Shown: positions 12,286-50,028 of the stretch, in pieces
Layout: every line of letters starts with the position of its first letter
How positions within the stretch are numbered: position 1 is the first letter of the stretch
Source of the DNA: a virus
Taxonomy: Duplodnaviria; Caudoviricetes
Reading direction: 5' to 3' (one strand)
DNA: 64,000 nt
IMG/VR virus record: IMGVR_UViG_3300021254_000021
Coordinates: 160,001 to 224,000 of that record
Position numbers and translations under genes: made by a program
The notes under the pieces: model-generated
What the model was told of the DNA's origin: nothing
Databases searched by the model: none
Seen by the model: the letters and a program-made list of their open reading frames with translations, nothing else

Positions 12286-12810
12286 ATGCTTAAATTAAAG
12301 AGGGTATGTGAAGCAAAGCAGGTAGGTGACATCTACCATTATTGCACATTACAAATAGCTGTGAAATATATCATTCCTAATGATACTTTATCACCTTCTG
12401 GCAAGTGGCCAAACCGTTTAATCGGTTCATCCAATGTATTATCTTTTACTAGGGACAAGCGATATATTGTTGATATTCTTAGAAAAGATCCCATTCTTGT
12501 ACAGTTTAAGGTAGATGGTGACAAGGTATCGGAGAATCATAAAGTCTTTCCTTATAATGATTATTATGATCCTGATTATGATGTTCCCGAGTATGAAGAA
12601 GAATTGGAAAAAGAGGAAGTTGTAGTTGGCAAACTTTCCCCATTCTCAAACTTCATTAAGTCGATTAAGGTTATTTTAAACAAGCCTGTAAAAGATTTAA
12701 ACCCTCTATACATTCAGTCTATGCTTGAGGATATAGAGGATTATGCACAGTCTCATTCGATACCTTTAGAGATGGATAAGGAATTAAGAGAGATATTAGA
12801 GGAGGGGTAA
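12286..12810 (+). CDS. hypothetical protein with basic-Glu leader; paralogue of 20694
   Basis: MLKLKRVCEAKQVGDIYH...SFTRDK...VDGDKVSENHKVFPYND is nearly matched in 20694. Confidence 0.75.
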   Translation: MLKLKRVCEAKQVGDIYHYCTLQIAVKYIIPNDTLSPSGKWPNRLIGSSNVLSFTRDKRYIVDILRKDPILVQFKVDGDKVSENHKVFPYNDYYDPDYDVPEYEEELEKEEVVVGKLSPFSNFIKSIKVILNKPVKDLNPLYIQSMLEDIEDYAQSHSIPLEMDKELREILEEG

Positions 12811-12813
12811 TTT

Positions 12814-13983
12814 ATGGTTAAATTAAAGAGGGTGAATGAGAATCAGTTGGATTTATTTAGTTGGAAACCTAAAGGCGGTAATGCCGTAGATACCGTCTAT
12901 GATGGTTTATCTGATACGGATGATAAAGACTGGTTTAATGTCTCATATCTGTATAAAAAATATGGTGAGTATAATCGCAGATTTTTTAACTCTGCTTTAC
13001 CCGAGTTACCTTTGTATATAAAGACATACAAACACGCTTTGGGTGTCTGTATTTCATTAGGCAGTAAGTCAAGGAATGAAATCAATCTCAAAGAGATTTG
13101 TATTTCCAAACTTAAATTTAACAACAGATTCTCTATGGAGCAAGTCCTTGTCCATGAGATGTGTCATGCCTACCAGATTCATATATTGTGTGATAATTCC
13201 CTTACTCGATATTCTATGGATGCCAAACAGGGATCAGGTAGTCAGGGACACGGCCCATTATTCTTTAAAGCGGCTGATTTAGTGAATAACTCTCCAGAAA
13301 ATAAAGAAGGGTTTAAAATAACACAGTATAATGAGGATATTAACACGGCGCATAGAATAGGCGGTAAATCCACCTCTGGTTATTGCTATATTAAACCAAC
13401 CCTAGAAGGTCTTTTTGTCTATACCATAGCCGACACGCCATCTAATAAAGAGAATATAGACTATCTTAAACATTATGAGCCTGAGTATATGTACAGCTAT
13501 AAGGATGCAGAAGCAAAGAGTATCTGTACCACTCATTTTGGCCGTACCAAAGGTTATATTTATCCTTGGCAGAAAATCATAGAGAGTATTTGTAATAAAA
13601 TCATTAATGGAGATCTTATCCCTCTGGTAGAAGATAATAAATTAGAGAAAAAGTATATTATATACAAAGATGATGTTGTTTCGGTCTCTATGGTAGAGCC
13701 TTTTGGTAAAGAGATGAAAGAGGTGGTTATGAACAAGCCATATTCCATATTCCAGAACAGAATGAGTAATGAATGTACAATTCTATTAAAAGATAGAACT
13801 AATAAGGAAACCAAACGTTTTTTGGAAGGTGTAAAAATGGGTGTATTCTCTGGTGTAGAAGGAATATATAATAAGAATGAGTCTCTGTCTATTCAGGATG
13901 CTAGTGACATCATAGAGGATGCAGAAAATACGTTAGAGGTTAAAGAAATATCGGATGAGGTAGAGGAGATCATTATAGAATAA
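12814..13983 (+). CDS. SprT-like zinc metalloprotease with N-terminal QLDLF motif
   Basis: YNRRFFNSALP, LVHEMCH (HExxH) and downstream GHGPLF typical of the SprT family. Confidence 0.8.
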   Translation: MVKLKRVNENQLDLFSWKPKGGNAVDTVYDGLSDTDDKDWFNVSYLYKKYGEYNRRFFNSALPELPLYIKTYKHALGVCISLGSKSRNEINLKEICISKLKFNNRFSMEQVLVHEMCHAYQIHILCDNSLTRYSMDAKQGSGSQGHGPLFFKAADLVNNSPENKEGFKITQYNEDINTAHRIGGKSTSGYCYIKPTLEGLFVYTIADTPSNKENIDYLKHYEPEYMYSYKDAEAKSICTTHFGRTKGYIYPWQKIIESICNKIINGDLIPLVEDNKLEKKYIIYKDDVVSVSMVEPFGKEMKEVVMNKPYSIFQNRMSNECTILLKDRTNKETKRFLEGVKMGVFSGVEGIYNKNESLSIQDASDIIEDAENTLEVKEISDEVEEIIIE

Positions 13984-14666
13984 TGGATACCTTCCTTACA
14001 CAAATCCCTATCCCCAATTTCCCTAGTCTATACTTAACTGAGATTGATTTGGATTCCACCTATTTCCCTCTATCACCTCTGGCGGATATTCTTGGTTATT
14101 CTACACCTTACTCTTTAATTCAGAATATCCCGCCAGAGTTAAAAATTAGTGTGTCAGAGCTTTACTCTTTATATACCTTATATCTCGACCAATTCTACTC
14201 ATATATACCGATGAATGAGAGAGTATTTAAAAAAAGTTTAGTTAAATATAAACCTCTATGGTTTACGAATAAAGAGGGTATTGTTTACATCCTTAGTAAA
14301 AATACCTTTACTATACCTAGATTGAAGGAAAGCATTGCTAAGGTTTTAGGTCTTTCCACAATAGCTCCGCCGCGTAAAGAATCTATCTTTTATGATGCTT
14401 TATATTCCATGCTTAGAGATACGGGAATAAAGATTAACCGACATCTCTATCTTGCGGGGTATTTTGTGGATATAGAACTATACCCCATTCATGTGGTTGT
14501 GGAGTATGATGAGAATAACCATAAGTATTACGACAAAGAAAAAGAGGATAAGAGAGAGAAGGTTTTAAAGGCATTAGGGTATAGTATAATAAGAACAGAT
14601 GATTCTGTACCTCCCATAGAGTCCGCAACGGCTGTATTTAAACAAATCCTACCAATGATCCAATGA
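13983..14666 (+). CDS. Bro-N-like domain plus DUF559/Vsr-like nuclease domain
   Basis: LADILGYS...FTNKEGIVYIL; GYFVD...VVEYDENNH...LGYSIIR. Confidence 0.7.
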   Translation: MDTFLTQIPIPNFPSLYLTEIDLDSTYFPLSPLADILGYSTPYSLIQNIPPELKISVSELYSLYTLYLDQFYSYIPMNERVFKKSLVKYKPLWFTNKEGIVYILSKNTFTIPRLKESIAKVLGLSTIAPPRKESIFYDALYSMLRDTGIKINRHLYLAGYFVDIELYPIHVVVEYDENNHKYYDKEKEDKREKVLKALGYSIIRTDDSVPPIESATAVFKQILPMIQ

Positions 14667-15247: not shown

Positions 15248-18200
15248 ATGGCTAGTACACCATACAAGCACTTTGTTCCACCTGTACCTTTAAATCCAGA
15301 CTATGACAAAAACTTTACCTATGTTTTAATAGAGACCTTAGACCAATTAAAAGACTCTTTTCAAAAAGGTGTAGTGATAGCGTGGGATACGGAAACAACA
15401 GGATTGAATCCTGTTGAGTCTGAGATAGTTGGATTTTCATACTCTTATGATGGACAGACAGGCTATTATTGCCCTGTAAAGCACTTTGATCTAGCTTTAG
15501 GAAAACCCGCATTAGACTTATTCTACCAAGCCTTAAAAGACGCCAAATTACAGCTCTTATATAATGCAAGATTTGATATTCGCATGATGGAGTATTCTGG
15601 CTATGATATGTCTTTTTTATATCCGAAAAACCCAGATACTAATTTGTCGCAAGCTGTTTTCATTGATGTAATGAATCAGGTATGGTTGGCAGATACCAAT
15701 ATTCCACTACCCTCATTAAAATCCTCTACCCTTCACTTTTTAGGCTATCAGCCACCAAAATTTTTAGAGACTTTGGGGGATGAGCAAAACTTTAAGTATG
15801 TACCCGCCAAAGATGCTTATCGTTATGCCTGTTTTACAGCAGATACGCTAATTCAGACTAAACATGGTCTTAAACAGATTAGTGAATTAAAGCCTAACGT
15901 AGATTTAATTAAAACATCTGATGGCTATCACCGACTCCTTAATGTTTTGGATCAAGGTGTGCAAAAGGTGATTAGAGTAAGCACACCTATTGGCACATCC
16001 TTTACCTGTACCCCAGACCATAAATTTGCAATGGAGATAGACCATTGTATTTGTTGGGTAGAGGCCAAAGATCTTGATAAAATCTCTTTTCATAAGAGGT
16101 ATTGTGGCGGGCAGTCTCTTTATGAAATAGAGAAATGCTACACACCGTCACCTATGGTAATGGATGACGGGAATGCGTGTAAAATAGAGTATGTGGATGA
16201 ACCACAACCCGTATTTGATCTTACTATTGAAGATGAGCATAATTTCTTTTTACAGTGTGGTTTAATAGCACATAACTGTCTGGATGCTATTAACACAATG
16301 AATCTGTTTAAAGTTACGTATCGCTTTTATAAAGAGTCTGGTAAAGCCGCACAGTTGGATAATGCCTGTGTGTACATTATTGGACAGTTGGAAAAAACAC
16401 CTCTTAATATTGACACCGATTACTTGGTAGATCTTAGGGATAAGGTTTATAGCCGTGTATTAGAACTAGAACAAGAGATTTATTCCATTGCGGGACATCC
16501 TTTTAAGATCGGTTCTAACAGAGAACTTACTTTAGTTTTCCAAGAACATGGAATTGATACGGGGGAGAGAACAAAAGCAGGGGATATGAAAACGGGGATA
16601 GAATTATTAAATATGTATCTTCGTAATCACCCAGAATGTACACTGTTAAAGCTACTAATAGAGTACAAAGAGCAATTCAAGTTCTACAACTCTTATCTTA
16701 AAACCCTTGTAGATATTGCCAAAAAGCAAGACACTGTTCCACCTAGATTCTCTTATAAATTACAATCTGTTCCTTGTTTGACAGAGAACAACTTGGTTTT
16801 AATTAGGGATAAAGGAATAACCTACATACCAGAGGTAAAGGAGCAAGACTATATCTGGACGCAGTATGGATATAAAAGAGTTTTATGGTGTAATAGCCAT
16901 AAAACAGAGGATGTTTACCGCGTTACTTTTGAAAATGCGGTATTTATAGAGGGTACTGCGCATCACCCAGTCTTAGTAAATAAAGGGACAGAGATAAATC
17001 CAGAGTTGGAGTGGGCTACTTTGGAATCATTAAAAGAAGGGGAGAGGGTAATATTTAATCATCATACTCCACCTTTGCAATACTCTGATGATCCTAAAGA
17101 AAAAGAGCTGTCTAAGTATTTAGAATATTTAGGTTATTTAATAGCCGTGAATATTGAGCCTAGCGTGCAATATCAGGTAGATTGGATTGAGACAAGGGAT
17201 GATTTGTTTAAACAGGCTTCTAACGAGTTTAGGCAAATGACTCATACAATCACGTCAAATCCCGGCTACCTGTTTGATTTAGTGATTAAATCTAAGCCAT
17301 ATCAGTGGATTCATTTCTTACAAGGAATCTTTTTCTCTGTATTTGAAACACCCGTAGCACAAACATGGAATAACTCTAATATGGATGAGTTTATTCTAAG
17401 ATCACAAACGCCTTTACTATTAACCTTCTTAATGAATATCCTTAGTTACTTGGGTATCCCAACATCCCTAGCCTATGATGATGATTCCTTCTTTATTATC
17501 TTTAATACATCGCAGTCTCTAACACTTTTAAAGACATTGATTATAACAGACTCTAACTCTCATTATCTCAAATCCTTATTCCAGAACTATAATCCATTCA
17601 ATTATTTTATAGAGTATGCTGATTCTAAGGTAAAAGCAAAAGAGAAAATGGAAGGGGAGCATACTGTCTATGATATTGAAGTAGAGGATGTGCATGAGTA
17701 TGTGGCCAATGGTATTGTCACACATAATACAGGCAGACTTGCTACTGGTAAAGATGGCAAGAATACCTACTTTGCACCAATTAACCTTCAATGCTTAGAA
17801 GAAAATACATTGATTAAAACGGAGCGTGGTAATATACCTATTAAAAATGTGACAGAGAAGGATCTTGTTTGGACAGGTACACGTTTTGTACCTTGTAAAC
17901 CATTAGGAAGTAAACAAAAAGAGTGCTTTAAAATAAAGACTTTATGGGGAGAGATTGAGGCTTCCTTAGAGCATAGATTTTTAACCATTAATATCTATGA
18001 CGACTATAAAATAGAGTGGCATACTCTAGCAGAATGTATTTCTCGTAAACTACCCTTAGTAAAAGATCCACAATCATTAGGTATTCAGTTTGACGATCTT
18101 TATAATCACCCCACGTATTCTGTCATAGGAAACCTAAGAAAAGAGTTAGACCTAGACCGTTATCGTAAAGTTGCCGAGTTTTACAAGTCTTATAAATTTG

Positions 18201-20626
18201 ACATTATCATAGAATGTCCGTGGCAATTCTGGAAACCTGATTTATACCCTTTCCCAGAATTAACAAAGACTGTCTATGACCTCTATGTTCCAGAGTATAA
18301 CCAGTTTACAGCTAATGGGTTTATTGTACATAATTCTTTGCCCAAGCCCAAGTCTATAAAGTGTTATGCCAGAAAAGCTACTCCCGAGGAAATAGAAAAT
18401 AAACAGGATGTATTAGGATGGATGTTTTCACCTAATCACCCTGAGTGGAGTCCCGGGAAAGTAGTAGAAGGAATGGATCAGAATCTTAATGTTAGAGCCG
18501 CATTTCTACCAGAACATCCAGAAAACGGAGATTATGTGGTGTCTTGCGATATGTGCTTAGAGGCGGGATCTCCTGTACAAACAAAACGTGGTTATTTAGG
18601 TATATCAGAATTAAAGGTTGGTGATGAAATATACTCGCCTCAAGGATGGGTGGAAGTTATTCGCGTAATGCAGACAGGTATAAAGAAACTCATTAAGGTA
18701 TTACCTGATAATGGTGGGCAAGCCCTTTATTGCACAGAGGATCATCATTTCCCTATTGATAGTAAAAAGATAGAAGCTAGGAATATTAAGGCTTCTTTAC
18801 CTTCTATTTCGTTTTATAGCTATAATGAAGAAATTGAAAAGCGTGGTTTGACTGAAGCAAAACTGTCTATGCTTAAAATGTGTAAGACACCCAAAGAAAA
18901 AGCAAATTATATAATAGCTAATAACCTAAAAGATTTCTTTATTTCATCCCTTCAAAAATATACTAGGGCAAACATAGCTCGATGGACAGGTACAAAAGTT
19001 TCGAGCTTTGGGCATATTTTAGACTACTTAGGTATTCATAAAACGAATAAGAGATATGCTTTTAAAGTAGATCGCTTTTATAACAATCCTTTCATAGATT
19101 CTAGTAATCCAACTTCAGCTTATCTGTTTGGTTATATTTTAGGTGATGGTAATATACATGAAAGAAAAAGTGGTATATCTACGTTAAATATTACTTCTAA
19201 AGATAAAGCACATCTCACACGTATCATGGAAATCTTTGGTAAAGATACAAAAATGCGTAAGCATAGTAGAGATGATAAAGAATGGTGGTCTATTGATATA
19301 ACAGATCAAGGTATTTGTAAACGTCTTAAAGAGTTAGGCATTAGTATGCGTAAGTCCACAGAACCTAGTTATGTAGATTTTACTTGGATTGGAGAGAACT
19401 TTAGACATTTTATTCGTGGTTTATTTGATTCAGATGGTTATGTTCGTATTAGTTCAGGTTTGGATTTAAGTTTTGTAGGACACGATTTATATATTAAGGA
19501 AATACAAAAAAGAATTGATGGAGATTGGGGATATAAATATACCCAATCCTTATCTTATTTATTTTTGCATGGTAGATTAGAACAAAAGAAGTTTATTCAT
19601 GCTTACTTATATCAAGGTGCAACTATTTGGTTACAAAGAAAACGAGATATTATAGAGCAATGGTATTTAGAACATTTTGGAGATATTATATGGCCTGTAT
19701 GGAATTGTACGGTAAATACACCAGAACACCTATATTATGCAAATGCTATATCTACTTCAAACTGCGGCGAGGAACTAAGAGTAGTAACAAATTTATTTAA
19801 AGAGGATTCTTGGGCTAGGATTATAAATTCTGGTGGAGATTTACATCATGCTAATTCTGATGCTATATATGGAGAAGAAAATTATACTAAAGAAACAAGG
19901 AAGAAAGCTAAAGGGGCAGCATTCGGAATGCTCTACGGCCAAGAATATAGAGGGTTTCAGCGTAAATTTCCCGATATGTCTTTAGATGAAGCAAAGGAAT
20001 TTATGATAAAGTTTAAACGTACAATACCACATATTGTACACGGTCAAGAGAGAATGATTAAAGAAGCAAGACGTACTGGGACATTTTATTCTGGTTTTGG
20101 TCGTCCGCGTAGAGTTAAACATTATCTAACATCACCTGATTATAAGGATGTAGCATTTGGTGAAAGAACGATCAAAAATGGCCCGATCCAAAGTACAGCC
20201 GCCGATGTTTTAAAGTTGGAATTAATAAGATTATGGGATAACCTATTTACCGTTTATCCAGAATACAAGTTTATTGTTACTATACATGACGAAATAGATG
20301 TTAGTATACCAAGACACCTAGCTAATGAGATTATCCCTAAGATGATTAGATGTATGACTGTACAAAGACCCTCTGATCTTGTACCTCTTGACTGTTCATT
20401 GAGTTGTGGCCCCACATTGGGTGCGCAATATGAAATGGTATATAACTTTGAGACAAAAGAATTTGAGCCCAAATGGGAAGAAGATAAACGTATAGAAACT
20501 CAAGAAAGTACACAAGAGGAAACAGAGAATAATGAATTGGATGAGGAAAAAGAGAATATAGATGATTCTATTTCTTATGAGGATGATTTAGTAGAGGAAG
20601 TAGATTCAAAGATGTTTGATTTTTAG
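15248..20626 (+). CDS. polA: family A DNA polymerase (3'-5' exonuclease + polymerase) with four inteins; about 741 aa after splicing
   Basis: ExoI WDTETTG; TGRL; motif A DM|CGEELR; motif B RKKAKGAAFGMLYG; PIQSTAAD; motif C IHDEI. Confidence 0.95.
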   Translation: MASTPYKHFVPPVPLNPDYDKNFTYVLIETLDQLKDSFQKGVVIAWDTETTGLNPVESEIVGFSYSYDGQTGYYCPVKHFDLALGKPALDLFYQALKDAKLQLLYNARFDIRMMEYSGYDMSFLYPKNPDTNLSQAVFIDVMNQVWLADTNIPLPSLKSSTLHFLGYQPPKFLETLGDEQNFKYVPAKDAYRYACFTADTLIQTKHGLKQISELKPNVDLIKTSDGYHRLLNVLDQGVQKVIRVSTPIGTSFTCTPDHKFAMEIDHCICWVEAKDLDKISFHKRYCGGQSLYEIEKCYTPSPMVMDDGNACKIEYVDEPQPVFDLTIEDEHNFFLQCGLIAHNCLDAINTMNLFKVTYRFYKESGKAAQLDNACVYIIGQLEKTPLNIDTDYLVDLRDKVYSRVLELEQEIYSIAGHPFKIGSNRELTLVFQEHGIDTGERTKAGDMKTGIELLNMYLRNHPECTLLKLLIEYKEQFKFYNSYLKTLVDIAKKQDTVPPRFSYKLQSVPCLTENNLVLIRDKGITYIPEVKEQDYIWTQYGYKRVLWCNSHKTEDVYRVTFENAVFIEGTAHHPVLVNKGTEINPELEWATLESLKEGERVIFNHHTPPLQYSDDPKEKELSKYLEYLGYLIAVNIEPSVQYQVDWIETRDDLFKQASNEFRQMTHTITSNPGYLFDLVIKSKPYQWIHFLQGIFFSVFETPVAQTWNNSNMDEFILRSQTPLLLTFLMNILSYLGIPTSLAYDDDSFFIIFNTSQSLTLLKTLIITDSNSHYLKSLFQNYNPFNYFIEYADSKVKAKEKMEGEHTVYDIEVEDVHEYVANGIVTHNTGRLATGKDGKNTYFAPINLQCLEENTLIKTERGNIPIKNVTEKDLVWTGTRFVPCKPLGSKQKECFKIKTLWGEIEASLEHRFLTINIYDDYKIEWHTLAECISRKLPLVKDPQSLGIQFDDLYNHPTYSVIGNLRKELDLDRYRKVAEFYKSYKFDIIIECPWQFWKPDLYPFPELTKTVYDLYVPEYNQFTANGFIVHNSLPKPKSIKCYARKATPEEIENKQDVLGWMFSPNHPEWSPGKVVEGMDQNLNVRAAFLPEHPENGDYVVSCDMCLEAGSPVQTKRGYLGISELKVGDEIYSPQGWVEVIRVMQTGIKKLIKVLPDNGGQALYCTEDHHFPIDSKKIEARNIKASLPSISFYSYNEEIEKRGLTEAKLSMLKMCKTPKEKANYIIANNLKDFFISSLQKYTRANIARWTGTKVSSFGHILDYLGIHKTNKRYAFKVDRFYNNPFIDSSNPTSAYLFGYILGDGNIHERKSGISTLNITSKDKAHLTRIMEIFGKDTKMRKHSRDDKEWWSIDITDQGICKRLKELGISMRKSTEPSYVDFTWIGENFRHFIRGLFDSDGYVRISSGLDLSFVGHDLYIKEIQKRIDGDWGYKYTQSLSYLFLHGRLEQKKFIHAYLYQGATIWLQRKRDIIEQWYLEHFGDIIWPVWNCTVNTPEHLYYANAISTSNCGEELRVVTNLFKEDSWARIINSGGDLHHANSDAIYGEENYTKETRKKAKGAAFGMLYGQEYRGFQRKFPDMSLDEAKEFMIKFKRTIPHIVHGQERMIKEARRTGTFYSGFGRPRRVKHYLTSPDYKDVAFGERTIKNGPIQSTAADVLKLELIRLWDNLFTVYPEYKFIVTIHDEIDVSIPRHLANEIIPKMIRCMTVQRPSDLVPLDCSLSCGPTLGAQYEMVYNFETKEFEPKWEEDKRIETQESTQEETENNELDEEKENIDDSISYEDDLVEEVDSKMFDF
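15830..16276 (+). mobile_element. mini-intein 1 (149 aa) in the ExoIII motif
   Basis: YA|CFTADT...CTPDHKF...LIAHN|C. Confidence 0.9.
16775..17728 (+). mobile_element. intein 2 (318 aa), apparently degenerate LAGLIDADG
   Basis: VP|CLTENN...GTAHHP...IVTHN|TGRL; LGYLIAVN and FLQGIFFS lack the usual DG. Confidence 0.9.
17792..18334 (+). mobile_element. mini-intein 3 (181 aa)
   Basis: NLQ|CLEENT...SLEHRF...FIVHN|S. Confidence 0.9.
18554..19762 (+). mobile_element. intein 4 (403 aa) with LAGLIDADG homing endonuclease, inserted in polymerase motif A
   Basis: CDM|CLEAGS...CTEDHHF...FGYILGDG...FIRGLFDSDG...ISTSN|CGEELR. Confidence 0.9.
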
Positions 20627-20693: not shown

Positions 20694-21596
20694 ATGGTTA
20701 CGTTAAAGAAATATGTCACAGAGGCAAAACAGGTAGGAACAATTTATCATGTTTGCTCTTTATCCGATTTGGAATACCTCATTCCTAAAGACACTTTATC
20801 CAGTTCGGGCTCATACTATAATAAGCTGTTAAAGACAGATAAAGCTATCTCTTTTACCAGAGATAAGAATTTCTTTGTCGATGTACCTAATATAGCCAAT
20901 GCACCTATTCATGTGCAGTTAGTTGTAGATGGGGACAAGCTATCCGAGAATTACAAAGTCACTCCATACAATGACTTTTATACAAGGGGTGATTCAGACC
21001 CTAATGTGTATGCGCCTAAGTCACCTAATAAAATAGACCCGATGTATTTAGAAAAAGAAGAAGCTGTTATTGGCCCGATTAAGAAGTTTTCTAATTACCT
21101 AAAGTCTATAAAGGTTATTGTTAAATCCCTGCCTTATAAAGAGTTGGATGATATTCAATATATCATTGAGGATTTAATATCATACACTACTAAGAATAAC
21201 ATTCCTGTGGAGTTGGAGATAAAGGATTCCTCACTAAAAGGAAAAATTAAGAGCTTGAATGACATTCTCTCTTACAACCCGTATGATCTCACATCTATTA
21301 CGGATATAGAGGATGCTATCATACCTTTATTCCAAAAGGTAAAAGACCCAACCTCTTTTAAGAAGTTGTCTGACTATATCCACTCCCTACTTACTAATGG
21401 AATAACATTAACCTATAAGTCACCTATAACCAATAAAAAGAGCAAGAATGCAGATATAGATTTATTAAAGGATGATTTAGAATCCGTGGATTATCAAATA
21501 AACCAGTGTGAGACGTATATAGGTAGTAATGTTCTCACAGTAGCATTTAGACTGCGTGGTTACTCTGATTATGGGTATATGGAAATCCTTTTGTAA
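20694..21596 (+). CDS. hypothetical protein with basic-Glu leader; paralogue of 12286
   Basis: MVTLKKYVTEAKQVGTIYH; shared SFTRDK and VDGDKLSEN blocks. Confidence 0.75.
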   Translation: MVTLKKYVTEAKQVGTIYHVCSLSDLEYLIPKDTLSSSGSYYNKLLKTDKAISFTRDKNFFVDVPNIANAPIHVQLVVDGDKLSENYKVTPYNDFYTRGDSDPNVYAPKSPNKIDPMYLEKEEAVIGPIKKFSNYLKSIKVIVKSLPYKELDDIQYIIEDLISYTTKNNIPVELEIKDSSLKGKIKSLNDILSYNPYDLTSITDIEDAIIPLFQKVKDPTSFKKLSDYIHSLLTNGITLTYKSPITNKKSKNADIDLLKDDLESVDYQINQCETYIGSNVLTVAFRLRGYSDYGYMEILL

Positions 21597-24470: not shown

Positions 24471-25742
24471 CTAAAGGCGGTTGGCTTGTAACTGACCCGT
24501 AGCTCTTGATCGAGTTTTTGAAGCTCTACTACGTTTTTTACCAACTTTCTTTTCAGAGTGTTGGCTGTCGTTACATCGTGGGGTGATTGACTGCACCCCT
24601 GTTTGAAGAGATATGCTCTCCGAACATTCTGTTTGCTCTTTAATCCAGTTCAGACCAAGATTAAACAGATTCATTGCTCCTATTCTATCGTCATTTGAAC
24701 GATAACCACAATTCTTACAACAGAAACAATGGAGCTTCTTGTCTCTATTTGACTTTTCAATATGCCCACATTTCGGGCAACACTGGCTTGTATAGCGTGG
24801 GTCAGCATTGATTACCAAACAGGAGTTTCGTTGTGCCTTGTATTTCAGCTTTTGTTCAAGGTCATAATACGACCAACTAACTGAAACATAACGGTCTTTT
24901 CTTTTGACCTTTTCCGTTGCACCACGAATCCCTTTCAAGTTTTCAAGCACAAACAAAGTTTTTGAAGGATTACTGGTTATGAGTGCCTTCGATACACAAT
25001 GGTTTACATCGTTCATCCAACGGTTTTCTCGTTGCCCAATCTTCTTCAAACGTCTTCTACTTGATGATGTACCCCGTTTTTGAAGTTCTGTTCTTAATTC
25101 TTTGTACTGCTCCCTTTTATGCTTTACTTTTCCTCCGTTAAAGAATGTTGATTTACCTTTTGAATCATAACTTACTGCTAAGAAATTTATACCACGGTCA
25201 ATGCCAACCACGTTGTAAATTTCAGAAACCTCACAATCCTCAACTTCTGATGTGACTGGGATATGTAGGTAGTATTTACGTTTTGAGCAAACAAGTCTGG
25301 CTGTACCGAACTTGAATCTGTCTTTGTCGAAATACTGTTCCATTCCTTTAATGTCGAATGGAGCTTTAATTCTACCGTCCAAAGTATTTACGCTGAAAAC
25401 GCCCTGAACAAGAGAATAATCCCTATTCCATACAAGGTCTAATTGAGGTTTTCTGAATTTCGGCTGAATCCATTGATGCTCTTCTGCAAGGATTGTCTTG
25501 TATTTGGCTATCACTGTAATAATGGCAGAGCAAGCCATCTGAGATTTTAGACCAAATTTGTCACGCAATTCGTCATAAAGATCATTATGGATCGTTTCTC
25601 GTTTGAGACATTTGTTTTCAAAGCAATAAGCCGCAATTCTGTCACAGGCAATGGAATACTGCACCATTGAACGGTCAAGTATTTTACGAACTGACCGTTC
25701 TGGGTGTATCTGAACCTTAGCTGTGACAACGATTTTCGACAT
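24471..25742 (-). CDS. tnpB: TnpB RNA-guided nuclease
   Basis: RuvC-I VGIDRG, RuvC-II VLENL, zinc finger CPKC...CKNC, RuvC-III NDDRIGA. Confidence 0.95.
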   Translation of the reverse strand: MSKIVVTAKVQIHPERSVRKILDRSMVQYSIACDRIAAYCFENKCLKRETIHNDLYDELRDKFGLKSQMACSAIITVIAKYKTILAEEHQWIQPKFRKPQLDLVWNRDYSLVQGVFSVNTLDGRIKAPFDIKGMEQYFDKDRFKFGTARLVCSKRKYYLHIPVTSEVEDCEVSEIYNVVGIDRGINFLAVSYDSKGKSTFFNGGKVKHKREQYKELRTELQKRGTSSSRRRLKKIGQRENRWMNDVNHCVSKALITSNPSKTLFVLENLKGIRGATEKVKRKDRYVSVSWSYYDLEQKLKYKAQRNSCLVINADPRYTSQCCPKCGHIEKSNRDKKLHCFCCKNCGYRSNDDRIGAMNLFNLGLNWIKEQTECSESISLQTGVQSITPRCNDSQHSEKKVGKKRSRASKTRSRATGQLQANRL

Positions 25743-25836
25743 TATTCTACCTCAAAAAGAAAGCCAAACAAATTGACTTTCATTAGAGTAGATAGTATAA
25801 TCAAATTTGTTGAAAGTCAAGTGTTGAGAGGTAAAG

Positions 25837-26241
25837 ATGATCAAAAGGTACACGCGCAAAAACCGCAGGAAGTTCAGCCTAAAAGTACATCTGATTTTCG
25901 TAACCAAATATAGACGACCTATTTTAGTCGCTGGGTTGGATACTTGTGTTAAGGACAAGATTACTGAACTGTGCTTGAAACATGAGTGGGAGATTGTGGC
26001 TATGGAAACAGATAGAGATCACATTCACTTACTCTTGAATTATGATGCCACTGAGAGGGTTTCAGACATAGTGCATTGCCTGAAACAAGAGACTACATGG
26101 GAATTGTGGCAAAATTTCTATTGTTTTCTGCGTCCTAGATATTGGAAAAAGCACATATTCTGGTCTGATGGATATTTTGCTTGTAGTGTTGGAGAAATTT
26201 CTACCGAAACAGCTAGACATTACATAGAGAATCAAGGGTAG
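25837..26241 (+). CDS. tnpA: IS200 Y1 (HUH) transposase
   Basis: HLIFVTKYRR, DHIHLL, FWSDGYF, YIENQG. Confidence 0.95.
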   Translation: MIKRYTRKNRRKFSLKVHLIFVTKYRRPILVAGLDTCVKDKITELCLKHEWEIVAMETDRDHIHLLLNYDATERVSDIVHCLKQETTWELWQNFYCFLRPRYWKKHIFWSDGYFACSVGEISTETARHYIENQG

Positions 26242-33931: not shown

Positions 33932-34089
33932 AGCTATCAAGTATAAGGAATTGAAACCTCCAATGTGTTTCAGATACATTGTTTCAGATGGTCTTTGATA
34001 ATTGAATAATCCTTTTTCTGATCTCATAAATCATCTCCTGTGTGAATGGCAAGGGGTGAATAATCGTGATGATTATGATCATCCCGTTT

Positions 34090-34172
34090 GGGTAGGTAGC
34101 GAAGTGGCTAAACGCGGCGGGCTGTAAACCCGCTCCCCTACGGGTTCGGTGGTTCAAATCCATCCCTACCCA
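34090..34172 (+). tRNA. tRNA-Tyr(GTA)
   Basis: cloverleaf; GCGGG-CTGTAAA-CCCGC; long variable arm; GGTTCAAATCC. Confidence 0.9.
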
Positions 34173-34318
34173 TTACCACAATTATGAACGTCGTATCGGG
34201 CTAATAGGTTTCCCCTGTGATGCTATCTTGATCTATCGTATCTAATTGTGGTTTAGCCAGATTTCGTGAAGGAGTAATACTGACAATTAATTGTTATGTA
34301 CCTAGGAATTTGGCTTTT

Positions 34319-34391
34319 GCACCATTAATTCAGTTGGAAGAATAACTGCCTTCTAAGCAGTAAGTCGCAAGTTCGAGTCTTGCATGGTGTA
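34319..34391 (+). tRNA. tRNA-Arg(TCT)
   Basis: GCACCAT/ATGGTGT acceptor; ACTGC-CTTCTAA-GCAGT. Confidence 0.9.
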
Positions 34392-34542
34392 TTTTAATCC
34401 TTTTTACTTTAAATTATATGCTTTGAGTGCCTTAGTAGGAACAACTAAAGTATCATAGTCTCTATAATTTAGATTAATCTAACACTTACTATAAAAGTAA
34501 GAAAGGATATTAGGCAGGAAATTGTTAGTGACCTCCACATTT

Positions 34543-34616
34543 TCTGGTTTAGTTCAGTGGTAGAACGCCCACTAGACTTGTAGTGAGAGACATCGGTTCG
34601 ATTCCGATATCCGGAG
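34543..34616 (+). ncRNA. tRNA-like RNA with atypical anticodon arm
   Basis: normal D arm (GTTCAGTGGTAGAAC) and T arm (ATCGGTTCGATTCCGAT); CACTA/TAGTG stem closes a 6-nt loop. Confidence 0.6.
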
Positions 34617-34730
34617 TTACCAATCTTCACCTAATTAATTTAGGTCTGTAAAGCACGCGAATAATTAACTAGTTAATTATTCTATAAAGTGCAAAAAGAA
34701 GGGAAGTAGGAATGCAGTGACCTACTATTT

Positions 34731-34807
34731 AGCGGTGTAGCAGAATAGGTTCATGCGGTGGCCTTATAAGCCATGTCATTATGTGGGTTCAACCCCCACC
34801 ACCGCTA
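34731..34807 (+). tRNA. tRNA-Ile(TAT)
   Basis: AGCGGTG/CACCGCT acceptor; GTGGC-CTTATAA-GCCAT. Confidence 0.8.
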
Positions 34808-34885
34808 TTGCCGTTGGGATACGACATGTCCGATTTTTGAGGACTAAATAACCCCGATAGCCTGTGTCGTTAAACAGGCATTTAT

Positions 34886-34971
34886 GGGCGTGTAGTTTAA
34901 TATGGTAAAACAACTCTCGCGAGGAATATAGAAATATATTCGTAGAAATAGGTTCGAGTCCTGTCACGTCC
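34886..34971 (+). ncRNA. tRNA-like RNA with anticodon arm replaced by two short hairpins
   Basis: GGGCGTG/CACGTCC acceptor, D arm, T arm ATAGGTTCGAGTCCTGT; centre CTCGCGAG + GAATATA-GAAA-TATATTC. Confidence 0.6.
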
Positions 34972-34982
34972 CAAGCATCTTA

Positions 34983-35082
34983 TGGGCTGTAGTTTAAAAT
35001 ATGGTAACAGAACACTGATGAGATAGTCACTTTAGATTAATCTAAGGGATCAGAGGTCTTGGGTTCAAATCCCGGCAGTCAG
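34983..35082 (+). ncRNA. tRNA-like RNA with expanded anticodon loop
   Basis: D-like arm, CTGAT/ATCAG stem enclosing ~29 nt with an internal hairpin, T arm GGGTTCAAATCCC. Confidence 0.55.
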
Positions 35083-35232
35083 ATTTTTCTATGTATGGTA
35101 GAAAAACGTAGAGTGGAAGAGGGGCTTCGTTAATTCCCCTTTCAAGCAATCGAATTATTTATAGATTGAGATCTCCTATAAGTAATTGCGGATTGTAATA
35201 AGTAACTAAGACCATACAACTTAGTTACTTTT

Positions 35233-35545
35233 GCCAGTGTGGCGAAATTGGTAGTACGCAGCGGACTTGGTTATTTGAGCCGTATATCGGGAAACTATAT
35301 ACGGGATGTGGGCTAATTCGGTGAAAGTCTTAGCAAGTAAAGTTGAAGATAACGCCGAGCTAAATCAGGATTTAATATTCTGTAAATGTGTAGAGAACAT
35401 ATACCCACAACCTAAACACTTAATAGTGCATGGTTAAGACATGTTCCAGACTACAACCCTTATAATAAGGGGCTATGGAAACATAGAGTAGTAAGAAAAT
35501 CCGCTTCCCTTTACGGGAGTGTGAGTTCGAGTCTCACCACTGGTA
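35233..35545 (+). tRNA. tRNA-Leu(TAA) interrupted by a group I intron
   Basis: exon 1 35233-35268 ends GCGGACTT; exon 2 from 35496 begins AAAATCCGC; spliced loop CTTAAAA. Confidence 0.9.
35269..35495 (+). ncRNA. group I self-splicing intron (227 nt, no ORF)
   Basis: follows U, ends in G; P3 TGTGGG/CCCACA, P4 TTCGGTG/CGCCGAG, P7 GAACAT/ATGTTC. Confidence 0.9.
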
Positions 35546-35631
35546 TTAGAGAAGAAATAAATAGTGTAAAAACTATTTATAAAACCCAGAGTATGATTGG
35601 CTTGCCGAACACAGCTCTGGTCTTCTCTTTT

Positions 35632-35719
35632 AGAAGGTTGGCCGAGTGGTCTAAGGCGCACGACTGGAAATCGTGTAAACCCCTAAAGGGTTTCGTGGGT
35701 TCAAATCCCACACCTTCTG
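35632..35719 (+). tRNA. tRNA-Ser(GGA)
   Basis: AGAAGGT/ACCTTCT; CACGA-CTGGAAA-TCGTG; long variable arm. Confidence 0.9.
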
Positions 35720-36053
35720 TTTAGCTTTGTTTAGCACTTTGGGTGCAATATTCCTTAGAGGAATGACAAAGCTATTTTTGTTTTATGTCCTGTTGTTCTT
35801 TTTCGTTAGATCATGGTCTTGCATGATCATAGGCAGACACACCTCATAACTTGTAATGAGGTTTTAGAAATACATTTTAATGTATGTGTAGTAAGGGCGT
35901 ATATGCCTTCCTATTCCGTATGTGATGTCTTTGTAGCACTCATCACAGCTCCTAATACAAGTGGAAAGCCCCAAGTAATACCGTTATTATTTGGGGCTTT
36001 TTCGTATATCTATTAAGGTGTTATTTATTCCTTTTAGCATAAGGATATTTATT

Positions 36054-36947: not shown

Positions 36948-37436
36948 ATGAATGGTTATCCAAGACTGTATATTGGCAAGGCGGCACAAGAATTAAAAAA
37001 GAGATGCACCTTCCCTGTGTATCAAGTAACAAAGGAAACATTGTCGGAATTTATAGCTTATTATTCCACAATACCAAGTATGAAAAATCCATTGGTTATT
37101 GAGGATATAGCCTATCTGCCTTTTGACGCACAATCCAATTTACTTAAATTTATTGAGGATAGTAAATTAAAGATTATTCTATTGTCGTCAGAGGATCAGA
37201 TCATCTCTACCATCCTTTCCAGAATGTCTTTAGTATATAAGATTAAAGAGAATGTATCATCCCAATTCCTAACTGTCAAACAGGCGCAAGAAGAATTGGA
37301 TGATATAGACCAAGATACGTATTATTTAACGTATATAAAGAAAGAGATGCAACTTTCCCCCATCTCATACTATTATGACCAATACTTAAAGAATAAGTCG
37401 AATAAACAAAAGCTACTGCAACTTATAAGTGACTAA
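36948..37436 (+). CDS. truncated clamp-loader-like (HolB/DnaX-type AAA+) subunit
   Basis: LVIEDIAYLPFDAQSNLLKFIED...IILLSS...IISTILSR; no Walker A. Confidence 0.6.
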   Translation: MNGYPRLYIGKAAQELKKRCTFPVYQVTKETLSEFIAYYSTIPSMKNPLVIEDIAYLPFDAQSNLLKFIEDSKLKIILLSSEDQIISTILSRMSLVYKIKENVSSQFLTVKQAQEELDDIDQDTYYLTYIKKEMQLSPISYYYDQYLKNKSNKQKLLQLISD

Positions 37437-40227: not shown

Positions 40228-40746
40228 ATGGTTAAGTTAAGAAGATGCAATGAGGCACAATTAAGCCTTTTTGATAAACCCCTACCCTTAGATTTACATC
40301 ATAATAATACCGAGGTAGAACCCGAGGTAACACAGGTAGAAGAACCAGAGACAAATAATAAGGTGTATTCAAGAGAATATGCTAACAGAGCTAAACAGTT
40401 AAGAACATTAAAAGGACAGGAATTATTAGATGCTGTCGAAGAAGGGGATATATTCTGGGGCAGATGGGGTTATAACCGCACTATAACAAACTGGTTTATC
40501 GTTAAACGTAAAACAGCAAAAAGAATCATTTTACATGAGATAGATTATACTTATGGTAATCAGCCGGGAGATAGTATAGGTGGTTGGACAACGTGCCCAC
40601 TTTTACCCCCTAAAGAGATAAGTGGTAAAAGAGATATGCAGGGTATTCCCCTACCAGAAAACAGGTATGCACAAATTCAAATACCCGACTATCCTAAATC
40701 ATTAACAGTCTGGGATGGTACATACGGTTGGGAAAACATGGATTAA
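40228..40746 (+). CDS. hypothetical protein with basic-Glu leader and QLSLF motif
   Basis: MVKLRRCNEAQLSLF; AGGAG SD. Confidence 0.75.
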   Translation: MVKLRRCNEAQLSLFDKPLPLDLHHNNTEVEPEVTQVEEPETNNKVYSREYANRAKQLRTLKGQELLDAVEEGDIFWGRWGYNRTITNWFIVKRKTAKRIILHEIDYTYGNQPGDSIGGWTTCPLLPPKEISGKRDMQGIPLPENRYAQIQIPDYPKSLTVWDGTYGWENMD

Positions 40747-47649: not shown

Positions 47650-50028
47650 ATGGCATTAGAGACACAGCGTACTTTACCACAACTGAAAGCTGAATGTTTG
47701 CAGAAGGGAATAAATGTTGTTATAGAAGGGAAAAAGGAACATAAAGAGGATTATGTAAAAGCTCTTAGAAATTACTGGTTAAACAAGTATTATGACTCAC
47801 CAGAGAATGCACCTTGGGCACTTAAATTTATGCTGAATGAAATAGATTGTCCTATGCTCTGTAAGAGGTTTAAACAGTGCAAACCAGAGGTGCAGAAAAG
47901 AATGTTTGAATCGGATGAGTATATAGCTGAGGAGAAAATAGATGGTTGTTTCTCTTATAATACAGGAGTTCTTCTATCTGATGGTACTACAAGATCTATA
48001 GGAGAGATTGTAGAAAAGCGTTTACCTGTAGAGGTAATGTCTTTTGATGAAATAACTGGTAAACTTGTTCCTAGACAAGTAGTTAATTGGTTTAATCATG
48101 GTCAAAAAAAAGTATCTCAATGGGTGAAAATGAGTAGTACTGGAGGTAATTCCGTCCCTTTAAGGAATTTATCTCAACAAGAAAATTTTATTACAAAAAA
48201 CCATATTATTTATTCCGATGGTGCTTGGAAAAGTGTAATAGAATCTGACCATATAACTAGAGTTTTGCCTTCAATGAATCTTACTCAATTACAAGTTATG
48301 TATGGTTCCGTTCTAGGTGATGGAACATGTGCATTTTCTACTGATAAAGATGTTAATGCTTATTATGAGTTTTGTAATTCAGAGAAGCAAAAAGATTACT
48401 TTGATAAAAAAGTACAACTTTTTATAAAAATGCCGAATAAATTACAGACAAGGGTGAGTGGTTATGGTTCAACTATGTATTCTTGTCGTTTAAATGCTTG
48501 TAAAGAAGCCACGGAGCTTCATCATTTAGGTTATGTTAATAAAACTAGGAGAGTTACTAAAGAATACCTAGATAGAATGGATCTTTTAGGTCTTACTATA
48601 TGGTATTTGGATGATGGCTCTCGAAATAAAAGTAGGGATGAGCATACTTGTAAAATAACAAATAAATACTCAAGAGTTACTTTTTCAGCATACCGATATA
48701 ATGAAGATGATGTGAAAATAATTGTTTCATGGTTGAATGCTAGAAATTATGGTGCTTCTTTCCACATGACTACTAGGAAAGGAAATAAATTAGGATATAT
48801 TATTAACTTATCTTCTATGGGTAGTCAGAAGTTTTTTAAAGATATAGCTCAGTATGTACCAGAATCAATGGCTTATAAGATTCCACCAGAGTTACAGAAA
48901 GAGTGTGGGAAAGTGGAATGGTGGAGAGATTCTAAATTAGAATATATTTATGATTCTGTTCCTGTAAAATGGAAAAGTCATAAATCAGAGAATAGAATAT
49001 GTTCCTCTACGAATGCTTATGATATTGAAGTGGATGGAAACCATAGTTATGTTGCTAATGGTATTATTGTTCATAATTCTCGTAGTTTGATTATTTGGGA
49101 TGCTTCAACACAATCCTTCGACTTCTATTCCCGTAACAACTCTGTCAAAGACTTTTTACCTCAGTCATATAAAGATACTGTTTTAGTAACTTCTAAAGGT
49201 TTTACTTATCCAGAGAACTTTGTATTAGACTGCGAGGTTATTTCTACTAATCCAAACATCTCTACTGTAATGGGGAAAAGAGGGGTCGTATGTGCAACAC
49301 AGCTTCAAGCAACCACAGCTTTATTAGCCCTTAATCCAGAGGACTCCAAAGCATTGCAAAGAAAAGATCCATTAAAGTTTATTATCTTTGACTGTCTTTA
49401 TGATGGAGAATCTTTAATTAATAAACCTTGGAAAGAAAGACATCCTCATGCAGAAAAGTTAGCCTCTTTGCTTAAACAGTCTGGATTTACCTGTGATATA
49501 AACCCAGTAGTAAGAGAGAATAAATTAGAGTTTTATTCCGACTTAATTGAACAAGGAAAAGAAGGTTGTGTGTTTAAAAGAATTGATGCACCTTATCATG
49601 GATGTACAAGCAGGACGGATGATCAGGTTAAGTTAAAAAGAACGGTGGCAGAAGGGCTGAATAAAGACTTGGATGCTTGGGTTACAGGTTTTATTCCTTC
49701 TACACAGGATAAAGGATGGTCTAATTATATTGGAGCTTTAGTCTTTTCCTGTAAGGTGCAGATGAAGGATGGGACAATAAAGGATCATGTTATTGGTGTT
49801 TGCTCTGGTATTCCTTTTGAGTTAAGAAAGGCAGCAACCATTTATATTGATGATAAGCCCAGTCTAAACCCCGACTTCTTAGGAAGGGTTGCAACATTAA
49901 GTGGACAGAATATCAGTGCAAGAAAACTAGCTTTGACTCATGCTGTAATACAGTGTTGGCGTCCAGATAAAGATCCAGATGGATGTGAGATTTTAACAGA
50001 AGAAGAATTATTATCGTTGGTATTTTAA
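47650..50028 (+). CDS. ATP-dependent DNA ligase with intein (about 415 aa after splicing)
   Basis: motif I EEKIDG|SR, VLDCEV, FIIFD, EGCVFK, VKLK, WRPDK. Confidence 0.9.
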   Translation: MALETQRTLPQLKAECLQKGINVVIEGKKEHKEDYVKALRNYWLNKYYDSPENAPWALKFMLNEIDCPMLCKRFKQCKPEVQKRMFESDEYIAEEKIDGCFSYNTGVLLSDGTTRSIGEIVEKRLPVEVMSFDEITGKLVPRQVVNWFNHGQKKVSQWVKMSSTGGNSVPLRNLSQQENFITKNHIIYSDGAWKSVIESDHITRVLPSMNLTQLQVMYGSVLGDGTCAFSTDKDVNAYYEFCNSEKQKDYFDKKVQLFIKMPNKLQTRVSGYGSTMYSCRLNACKEATELHHLGYVNKTRRVTKEYLDRMDLLGLTIWYLDDGSRNKSRDEHTCKITNKYSRVTFSAYRYNEDDVKIIVSWLNARNYGASFHMTTRKGNKLGYIINLSSMGSQKFFKDIAQYVPESMAYKIPPELQKECGKVEWWRDSKLEYIYDSVPVKWKSHKSENRICSSTNAYDIEVDGNHSYVANGIIVHNSRSLIIWDASTQSFDFYSRNNSVKDFLPQSYKDTVLVTSKGFTYPENFVLDCEVISTNPNISTVMGKRGVVCATQLQATTALLALNPEDSKALQRKDPLKFIIFDCLYDGESLINKPWKERHPHAEKLASLLKQSGFTCDINPVVRENKLEFYSDLIEQGKEGCVFKRIDAPYHGCTSRTDDQVKLKRTVAEGLNKDLDAWVTGFIPSTQDKGWSNYIGALVFSCKVQMKDGTIKDHVIGVCSGIPFELRKAATIYIDDKPSLNPDFLGRVATLSGQNISARKLALTHAVIQCWRPDKDPDGCEILTEEELLSLVF
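47947..49077 (+). mobile_element. intein (377 aa) with LAGLIDADG endonuclease in ligase motif I
   Basis: KIDG|CFSYNT...GSVLGDG...WYLDDGS...IIVHN|S. Confidence 0.9.

Follow-up and report, generated by a model that had tools for sequence, protein, structure and literature searches.

A 64,000-nucleotide stretch of a virus record known from metagenomic sequence (Caudoviricetes; IMGVR_UViG_3300021254_000021), hereafter the window, was found to carry on its plus strand a gene for a 389-residue SprT-like zinc metalloprotease, which begins with a short basic leader followed by QLDLF, the consensus pentapeptide for binding the bacterial beta sliding clamp (DnaN). The window covers bases 160001-224000 of the 252,372-bp record (36% G+C; estimated completeness 94%), and positions are counted from its first base unless they are given as genome positions, which refer to the whole record. 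The features of the locus are collected in Table 1. The Shine-Dalgarno site of the protease gene is strong and sits within the last codons of the preceding gene (stop codon at 12808-12810), an overlap that suggests, from the sequence, translational coupling of the two genes. AGGAG-like sites were also found ahead of other leader-bearing genes of this phage.

The initial annotation had described QLDLF at residues 11-15 behind a putative leader, followed by a SprT-like domain with an HEMCH signature, and both descriptions were confirmed in the open reading frame (ORF) at 12814-13983(+), where HEMCH occupies residues 114-118. The SprT-like family PF10263 matched residues 48-165 at 37.1 bits (E 3e-9), above the Pfam curated cut-off of 25.6 bits. 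An AlphaFold2 model of the full protein, made with 22 homologues as input, had a mean predicted local distance difference test score (pLDDT) of 81.6, and residues 28-177 of this model superposed on the protease domain of human SPRTN (6mdx_A) with Z 12.2 and a root-mean-square deviation (rmsd) of 2.0 Å over 117 residues, at 26% identity. The structural matches that followed were minimal zincins (Z 6.9), Wss1 (Z 5.4) and ArdC (Z 4.2). Foldseek matched the model to SPRTN with E 1.2e-4 and probability 1.00, and a family profile searched against PDB sequences found Spartan at E 6.8e-6. H114, E115 and H118 were invariant in 22/22 aligned homologues; G145, H146 and G147 were also invariant and lie inside the range superposed on 6mdx_A, and we take H146 of the GHGP motif to be the counterpart of the zinc-ligand histidine in the GHGP motif of SPRTN. 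Since H114, E115, H118 and H146 are all invariant, the protein is probably an active zinc metalloprotease.

The structural match spans only chain residues 32-155 of 6mdx_A and stops short of the zinc-binding subdomain of SPRTN, and the phage protein's C-terminal domain is without a match; the protein is therefore placed in the SprT-like family and not classed as an SPRTN orthologue. Modelled alone, the C-terminal domain (residues 180-389) reached a pLDDT of 83.5 and a predicted template modelling score (pTM) of 0.74, and its fold was not recognised in structure searches, where the best match was of FlhB/Spa40-type (Z 3.9), Foldseek E values were 0.28 or higher and Atlas gave nothing useful. 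A PCNA- or beta-clamp-like fold was considered for this domain and rejected, as the Foldseek matches were meaningless (TM about 0.1, rmsd 16-18 Å, probability 0.01-0.04).

Several lines of evidence indicate that QLDLF is not an accident of composition. From the amino-acid composition of the phage itself, the pattern QL[SD]LF is expected at 1.45e-6 per position in a proteome of about 77,215 residues, which amounts to 0.11 expected occurrences, versus 2 observed across all six frames. Both copies stand at residues 11-15, straight after the shared leader, in two proteins whose bodies are unrelated, and the codons of the two copies differ, which argues against a recent duplication of DNA. Database searches gave homologue sets of 21 and 44 sequences, and in a maximum-likelihood tree 19/19 motif carriers fell in one clade (support 86/94) with zero losses inside it, in spite of terminal branches of up to 1.7 substitutions per site. 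The conservation of QLxLF in homologues on which the initial annotation had made its proposal depend is thus borne out: across the 21 sequences Q11 and F15 were invariant, L12 and L14 were kept in at least 90%, position 13 was D, N, S or E, and in every carrier the motif stood 1-8 residues after the leader. On these sequence comparisons, the motif is more than a chance occurrence.

The pattern of substitution also agrees with what has been measured for clamp-binding peptides. QLDLF has been reported as the strongest-binding clamp peptide sequence, with positions 1, 4 and 5 critical and position 3 tolerant (PMC11139829), and the conservation seen in this family follows the same weighting, with slack at position 3. 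Clamp binding has been measured for QLDLF, QLNLF, QLSFF and QLELF as motifs in Bacillus subtilis proteins, and QLSLF is a consensus peptide measured as binding the B. subtilis clamp (bioRxiv 10.64898/2026.05.27.728225); all motif variants of the phage family are among the experimentally measured ones, apart from a single QMDLF. Complex prediction with a Butyrivibrio DnaN (25-row alignment) and residues 1-30 of the phage protein gave scores of 0.27 and 0.12, where 0.32 was the mark for a verdict, and these scores are counted neither way on binding.

In the AlphaFold2 model residues 1-30, motif included, had pLDDT values of 54-56, and among homologues the linker between motif and domain varied in sequence and in length (13-40 residues), so that, on the model, the motif sits in a disordered and accessible N-terminal tether. 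Relatives that lack the motif keep the leader and pass directly to the conserved YDG with which the domain begins, at residues 16-20; the motif and its tether thus have the look of a segment inserted between the leader and the protease. With a SprT domain, a conserved motif and a disordered tether in place, the comparison to Spartan made in the initial annotation is fair as a description of architecture.

Table 1. Features of the SprT-like protease gene and of related genes in the window
Feature	Position	Strand	Remarks
SprT-like zinc metalloprotease gene (P0001)	12814-13983	+	ORF, 389 aa
Shine-Dalgarno GAGGAGGGG	12799-12807	+	6 nt ahead of ATG of the SprT gene; strong
Leader MVKLKRVNE, residues 1-9	12814-12840	+	basic, V-x-E ending; candidate T4-type capsid-targeting propeptide
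QLDLF, residues 11-15	12844-12858	+	consensus bacterial beta-clamp-binding pentapeptide
Linker (SWKPK...), residues 16-27	12859-12894	+	low confidence; length differs among homologues
SprT/Spartan-type metalloprotease domain, residues 28-177	12895-13344	+	superposition on 6mdx_A, Pfam, Foldseek, profile
HEMCH (H114, E115, H118), residues 114-118	13153-13167	+	zinc-binding/catalytic HExxH; invariant in every full-length homologue
GHGP (H146)	13246-13257	+	invariant; candidate third zinc ligand
Alpha/beta domain, residues 180-350	13351-13863	+	confident model; particular to this phage family
Acidic tail, residues 351-389	13864-13980	+	13 D+E, 2 K+R, isoelectric point 4.05; conserved beta-hairpin at end
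Second leader and clamp-motif protein (P0023, 172 aa)	40228-40746	+	QLSLF at nt 40258-40272, residues 11-15
Leader-bearing ORFs in the window	starts 12286, 12814, 20694, 40228, 40759, 46643, 50585
Delta'-like clamp-loader fragment	36948-37436	+	PF13177 26.8 bits; holB models E about 1e-4

The second copy of the motif belongs to P0023, a small protein whose body is unrelated to the SprT-like protein and whose gene lies in the replication module among genes for a delta'-like protein, a dUTPase, a single-stranded DNA-binding protein (SSB) and a ligase. Orthologues at 57-97% identity keep QL[SD]LF followed by [DN]KPLPL, and remoter ones have a different N-terminus. Searches of Pfam, PHROG and NCBIfam gave zero matches to P0023, and in Atlas its body groups with 'phage proteins', most of whose records come from Bacillota. 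P0023 may be a clamp blocker or an adaptor. A related pentapeptide, QLNLF, was seen at residue 105 of a 3111-residue ORF at genome 35639-44974, outside the window and just upstream of the head module, where it probably lies within a folded region.

The phage encodes parts of a bacterial-type clamp loader. A DnaX-like protein of 660 residues at genome 448-2430 (L083:412-2394), outside the window, matched TIGR02397 (152.9 bits, E 1.3e-44) and PF13177 (72 bits), in each case over residues of about 365-600, and the delta'-like fragment in the window scored just below the PF13177 cut-off of 27 bits. The N-terminal 360 residues of the DnaX-like protein are unexplained by family matches and could, from the sequence, be an intein-sized insertion. 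Searches of the phage with PF00712, PF02768, PF02916 and PF00705, which cover DnaN domains, T4 gp45 and PCNA, and with a profile of 25 Lachnospiraceae DnaN sequences detected no clamp gene. A bacterial-type loader in a phage with no detected clamp makes the host beta clamp the likely dock of the protease. Jumbo phages that combine a T7-like polymerase and a clamp loader with no detectable clamp have been described before (Iyer et al. 2021, PMC7824862).

Two further ideas about clamps were tried and set aside. Presence of the motif does not track presence of a clamp loader in a way that discriminates, as a loader without DnaN is likewise found in the relatives G032 and G033, which lack the motif. 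In IMG/VR relatives (L086:66-1316(-) and L088:60-1280(-)) the SprT homologue, which lacks the motif, has as its divergently transcribed partner a conserved protein of 406-416 residues without a known family; comparison of this neighbour with DnaN in hhalign gave a probability of 0.1, which speaks against a hidden clamp, and no homologue of it was found in the phage described here.

The leader ahead of QLDLF is not confined to the protease. The pattern M-[VLR]-[KVT]-L-[KR]-[RK], with a hydrophobic-x-Glu ending no more than a few residues further on, was found on about 19 otherwise unrelated ORFs genome-wide; the ending is VNE in the SprT-like protein and VCE, VTE, ITE, YLE or CNE in other carriers. 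Codons of the leader vary synonymously and only the ribosome-binding site is conserved upstream, so the signal lies in the protein. Elsewhere in the genome are a Peptidase_S77 of the gp21 family (genome 50210-51442; 50.9 bits; phrog_207, E 1e-40), which itself begins MSSKLVTE-S, and a Gp23-family capsid protein (genome 51446-52891; 128.9 bits), and directly upstream of this protease and capsid pair are two leader-bearing genes, at genome 46168-48387 and 49201-50139. Internal proteins and Alt of phage T4 carry capsid-targeting sequences of 10-20 residues that gp21 removes after motifs such as ITE-6 (PMC5694885). The T4-like ending of the leader, the S77 protease, the gp23-type capsid and the leader genes upstream of them together make packaging, cleavage and injection of the leader proteins plausible. 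For the SprT-like protein, packaging, a cut after Glu9 and delivery with the DNA would accordingly be a reasonable and plausible reading, and opinion on whether the leader is a T4-type capsid-targeting propeptide could fall to either side with about equal justification.

One subset of leader proteins forms a four-member paralogue family in which the leader is followed by AKQVG-x-[IL]YH (window 12286-12810 and 20694-21596; genome 7530-8045 and 49201-50139). The first of these is the gene apparently coupled in translation to the SprT gene, and the last is located just upstream of the gene for the prohead protease. Family comparisons gave no match for these paralogues.

Taken together, these features could be explained by a SprT-type protease joined through a flexible tether to a motif docked on host DnaN, with the leader serving as a capsid-targeting propeptide. 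We regard this combined explanation as having an even chance of being right, and its docking step, attachment of the protease to the clamp through QLDLF, as having a somewhat better one; within it we infer clamp binding, packaging, cleavage, injection, dependence on DNA and the substrates. The protein would be built into the prohead, and the prohead protease (S77) would cleave it after Glu9, leaving an N-terminus of N-QLDLF in which the motif is one residue from the new end, and it would be delivered with the DNA. By inserting into the hydrophobic cleft of DnaN, the sliding clamp of the host, QLDLF would then dock the protease on a clamp that the DnaX-type loader of the phage would probably load onto phage DNA, and the tethered protease could cut proteins sitting on or crosslinked to the DNA beside the clamp, by the same logic as SPRTN with its PCNA-interacting peptide (PIP) box and arrived at independently. 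Its targets might be obstacles crosslinked or tightly bound to phage DNA, or clients of the host clamp. That the clamp itself would be destroyed is made less likely by the apparent reliance of the phage on a beta-type clamp. The presence of a loader with no detected clamp, together with the place of the protease gene in the replication module, makes work on phage DNA, at host clamps loaded there, no less likely than an assault on the replisome of the host.

Several observations weigh against this explanation. A position in the replication module is unexpected for a late virion gene, although genes for T4 internal proteins are also scattered. The SWKPK that follows the motif is likewise conserved, which a pure clamp motif would not need, and a divergent phage clamp could have been missed by the sequence models used. 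Structure searches recognised no DNA-binding fold in the C-terminal 200 residues and found no counterpart of the zinc-binding or basic DNA-binding regions of SPRTN; the protein is not notably basic, and activation by DNA is therefore an assumption. The strong Shine-Dalgarno sites and the relatives of a TnpB-like protein in the window hint only weakly at a host among ruminant-gut Bacillota. That protein, of 423 residues, had its best matches, at about 60% identity, in metagenome-assembled genomes of ruminant-gut Bacillota (Solobacterium, Lachnospiraceae, Butyrivibrio).

The strongest competitor, which we nevertheless consider doubtful, is that the protease is never packaged and works only in the cytoplasm as a replisome accessory, a strict analogue of Spartan that clears crosslinks and roadblocks ahead of the phage polymerase, with the leader serving stability, localisation or translation instead. 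The SprT gene lies in the replication module, with the DNA polymerase gene (15248-20626) beginning 1.3 kb downstream, which leaves room for a purely intracellular role, and the P0023 gene near those for SSB, dUTPase and ligase and the presence of a phage clamp loader point the same way. This reading does not account for the leader's likeness to T4-type targeting sequences, which extends to length, the hydrophobic-x-Glu end and the accompanying S77 protease, or for the leader genes that flank the protease and capsid genes.

Somewhat less probable is a weapon for host takeover, in which the docking step would be as in the combined explanation and the injected protease, sitting on clamps at host forks, would cut proteins that use the clamp (Pol III, repair polymerases, Hda-like regulators) or else the clamp, the purpose being to shut off host replication and free clamps for the phage loader. 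The T4-like leader and head module are present as this would demand, the small leader and motif protein P0023 could block clamps, and phage clamp binders are known, among them Gp168, whose complex with the beta clamp is in the PDB (7evp), and MuC, which titrates the clamp and is toxic when overexpressed; SprT-like peptidases of jumbo phages have also been proposed to target host proteins (Iyer et al. 2021, PMC7824862). Since the phage encodes a loader and no detected clamp, it seems to need a beta-type clamp, and destroying clamps would be self-defeating. A more elaborate version, which we would likewise call unlikely and put on a level with host takeover, has the leader packing both the Spartan-type protease and P0023 into the head, trimming baring the motif, and both proteins seizing host beta clamps after entry, so that DNA-bound host or defence proteins would be stripped and the clamps passed to the phage loader.

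It is less probable again that the motif is a functional short linear motif with a different partner, whether as an extension of the targeting or processing signal, as a contact for the prohead core or portal, or as a contact for a phage replication protein. The motif always lies within 1-8 residues of the leader, and the flanking SWKPK and DKPLPL are conserved too, as this would predict. Just 2 of the roughly 19 leader proteins carry the motif, however, so the leader has no need of it, and motif-less relatives keep the leader; moreover, with one QMDLF excepted, the variants and the pattern of substitution match verified clamp motifs, which would otherwise be an odd coincidence. That the protein is an ordinary phage SprT-like peptidase, of the kind already known in jumbo phages and mycobacteriophages, with a functionless QLDLF is very improbable given the enrichment of the motif, its recurrence in the same register, its retention throughout the clade and its position-specific conservation, and the conservation analysis disfavours it.

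Comparison with known systems places the combined explanation between several precedents. The phage protein shares with human SPRTN (6MDX/6MDW) the metalloprotease fold, with HExxH and a downstream GHGP histidine, and the joining of this domain through disordered sequence to a docking motif for a sliding clamp. It differs in that its motif is the bacterial QLxLF at the N-terminus, whereas SPRTN has a PCNA PIP box in its C-terminal tail, and in that it has no SHP or UBZ modules and no match to the zinc-binding subdomain, carrying instead an unrelated C-terminal domain of 200 residues; the clamp tether of the phage protein is convergent with that of SPRTN. Phage-encoded SprT-like peptidases of PF10263 have been reported with a patchy distribution and proposed to cleave host proteins (PMC7824862; PMC12363180), and neither paper describes a clamp-binding motif or a leader resembling a capsid-targeting sequence in the peptidases of jumbo phages and mycobacteriophages. 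A literature search on SprT proteins and bacterial clamp motifs found no report linking the two.

For the motif itself the nearest parallels are MuC of phage Mu, whose N-terminal QHDLF was shown experimentally to bind the host clamp (bioRxiv 10.1101/2025.01.04.631326), and bacterial Hda; in both the host beta clamp is bound through a near-consensus motif at the N-terminus. Neither is a protease, MuC being a transcription activator and Hda an AAA+ regulator, and neither has a leader before the motif. The internal proteins and Alt of T4 resemble the leader proteins described here in bearing a short N-terminal leader with a hydrophobic-x-Glu end on unrelated cargo, in a phage with gp21- and gp23-family genes. 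They differ in that the leader sequence of the present phage is distinct (basic MVKLKR...E) and has about 19 carriers in a phage known from metagenomic sequence alone, and in that none of the T4 internal proteins is a SprT protease or has a clamp motif. ArdC of plasmid R388 (6SNA) offers a Spartan/Wss1-like protease domain that enters with foreign DNA to protect it; the match is weak (Z 4.2) and lies at the level of the general zincin fold only, and ArdC, unlike the phage protein, has an N-terminal domain that binds single-stranded DNA and lacks a clamp motif.

The surroundings of the protease gene gave few matches. No protein or DNA match was found among 50,697 phage records, and the neighbouring and leader-bearing genes, compared with Pfam and PHROGs, gave almost nothing beyond a DUF559/Vsr-like domain and weak ankyrin repeats in one leader protein. 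The DUF559/Vsr-like protein, of endonuclease fold, is encoded at 13983-14666 (+) between the SprT and DNA polymerase genes (PF04480, 34.5 bits) and may be a homing-type endonuclease. The polymerase ORF is 1792 residues long and has several intein-like interruptions, judged by eye, and the ORF of an ATP-dependent DNA ligase at 47650-50028 has N- and C-terminal splicing motifs of an intein. At 24471-26241 the minus-strand ORF of 423 residues and an adjacent ORF of 134 residues have, by eye, the look of an IS200/IS605-type TnpB and TnpA, and six tRNA genes (Tyr, Arg-TCT, Val, Ile-TAT, Arg-GCG, Ser) are clustered at 34089-35720.

In eukaryotes, where SPRTN works with PCNA, it is well established that proteins on DNA are cleaved by a protease coupled to the clamp; for bacteria and their viruses no such clamp-coupled protease dedicated to DNA-protein crosslinks has, to our knowledge, been established so far. 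Phage SprT-like peptidases, N-terminal clamp motifs such as that of MuC and T4-type leaders were each known separately, and what seems to be new here is a SprT-family protease with a bacterial clamp motif. The phage family provides a compact case of this, with a motif of five residues, one catalytic glutamate and a defined partner, and it bears on how phages with a clamp loader and no clamp exploit the clamp of their host. If binding to the clamp holds true, a phage would have arrived independently at the protease-on-clamp design, a family of SprT-like peptidases from jumbo phages, about whose role there have so far been only guesses, could be given a function, and the leader with its clamp motif would be a portable module, on at least two cargoes, that offers a handle for finding further clamp-directed phage effectors. 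If the leader also packs both motif proteins into the head and they seize clamps on entry, the phage would have a pre-packaged, proteolytically unmasked clamp-hijacking module, which would be the first counterpart in a prokaryotic virus of the coupling between SPRTN and PCNA.

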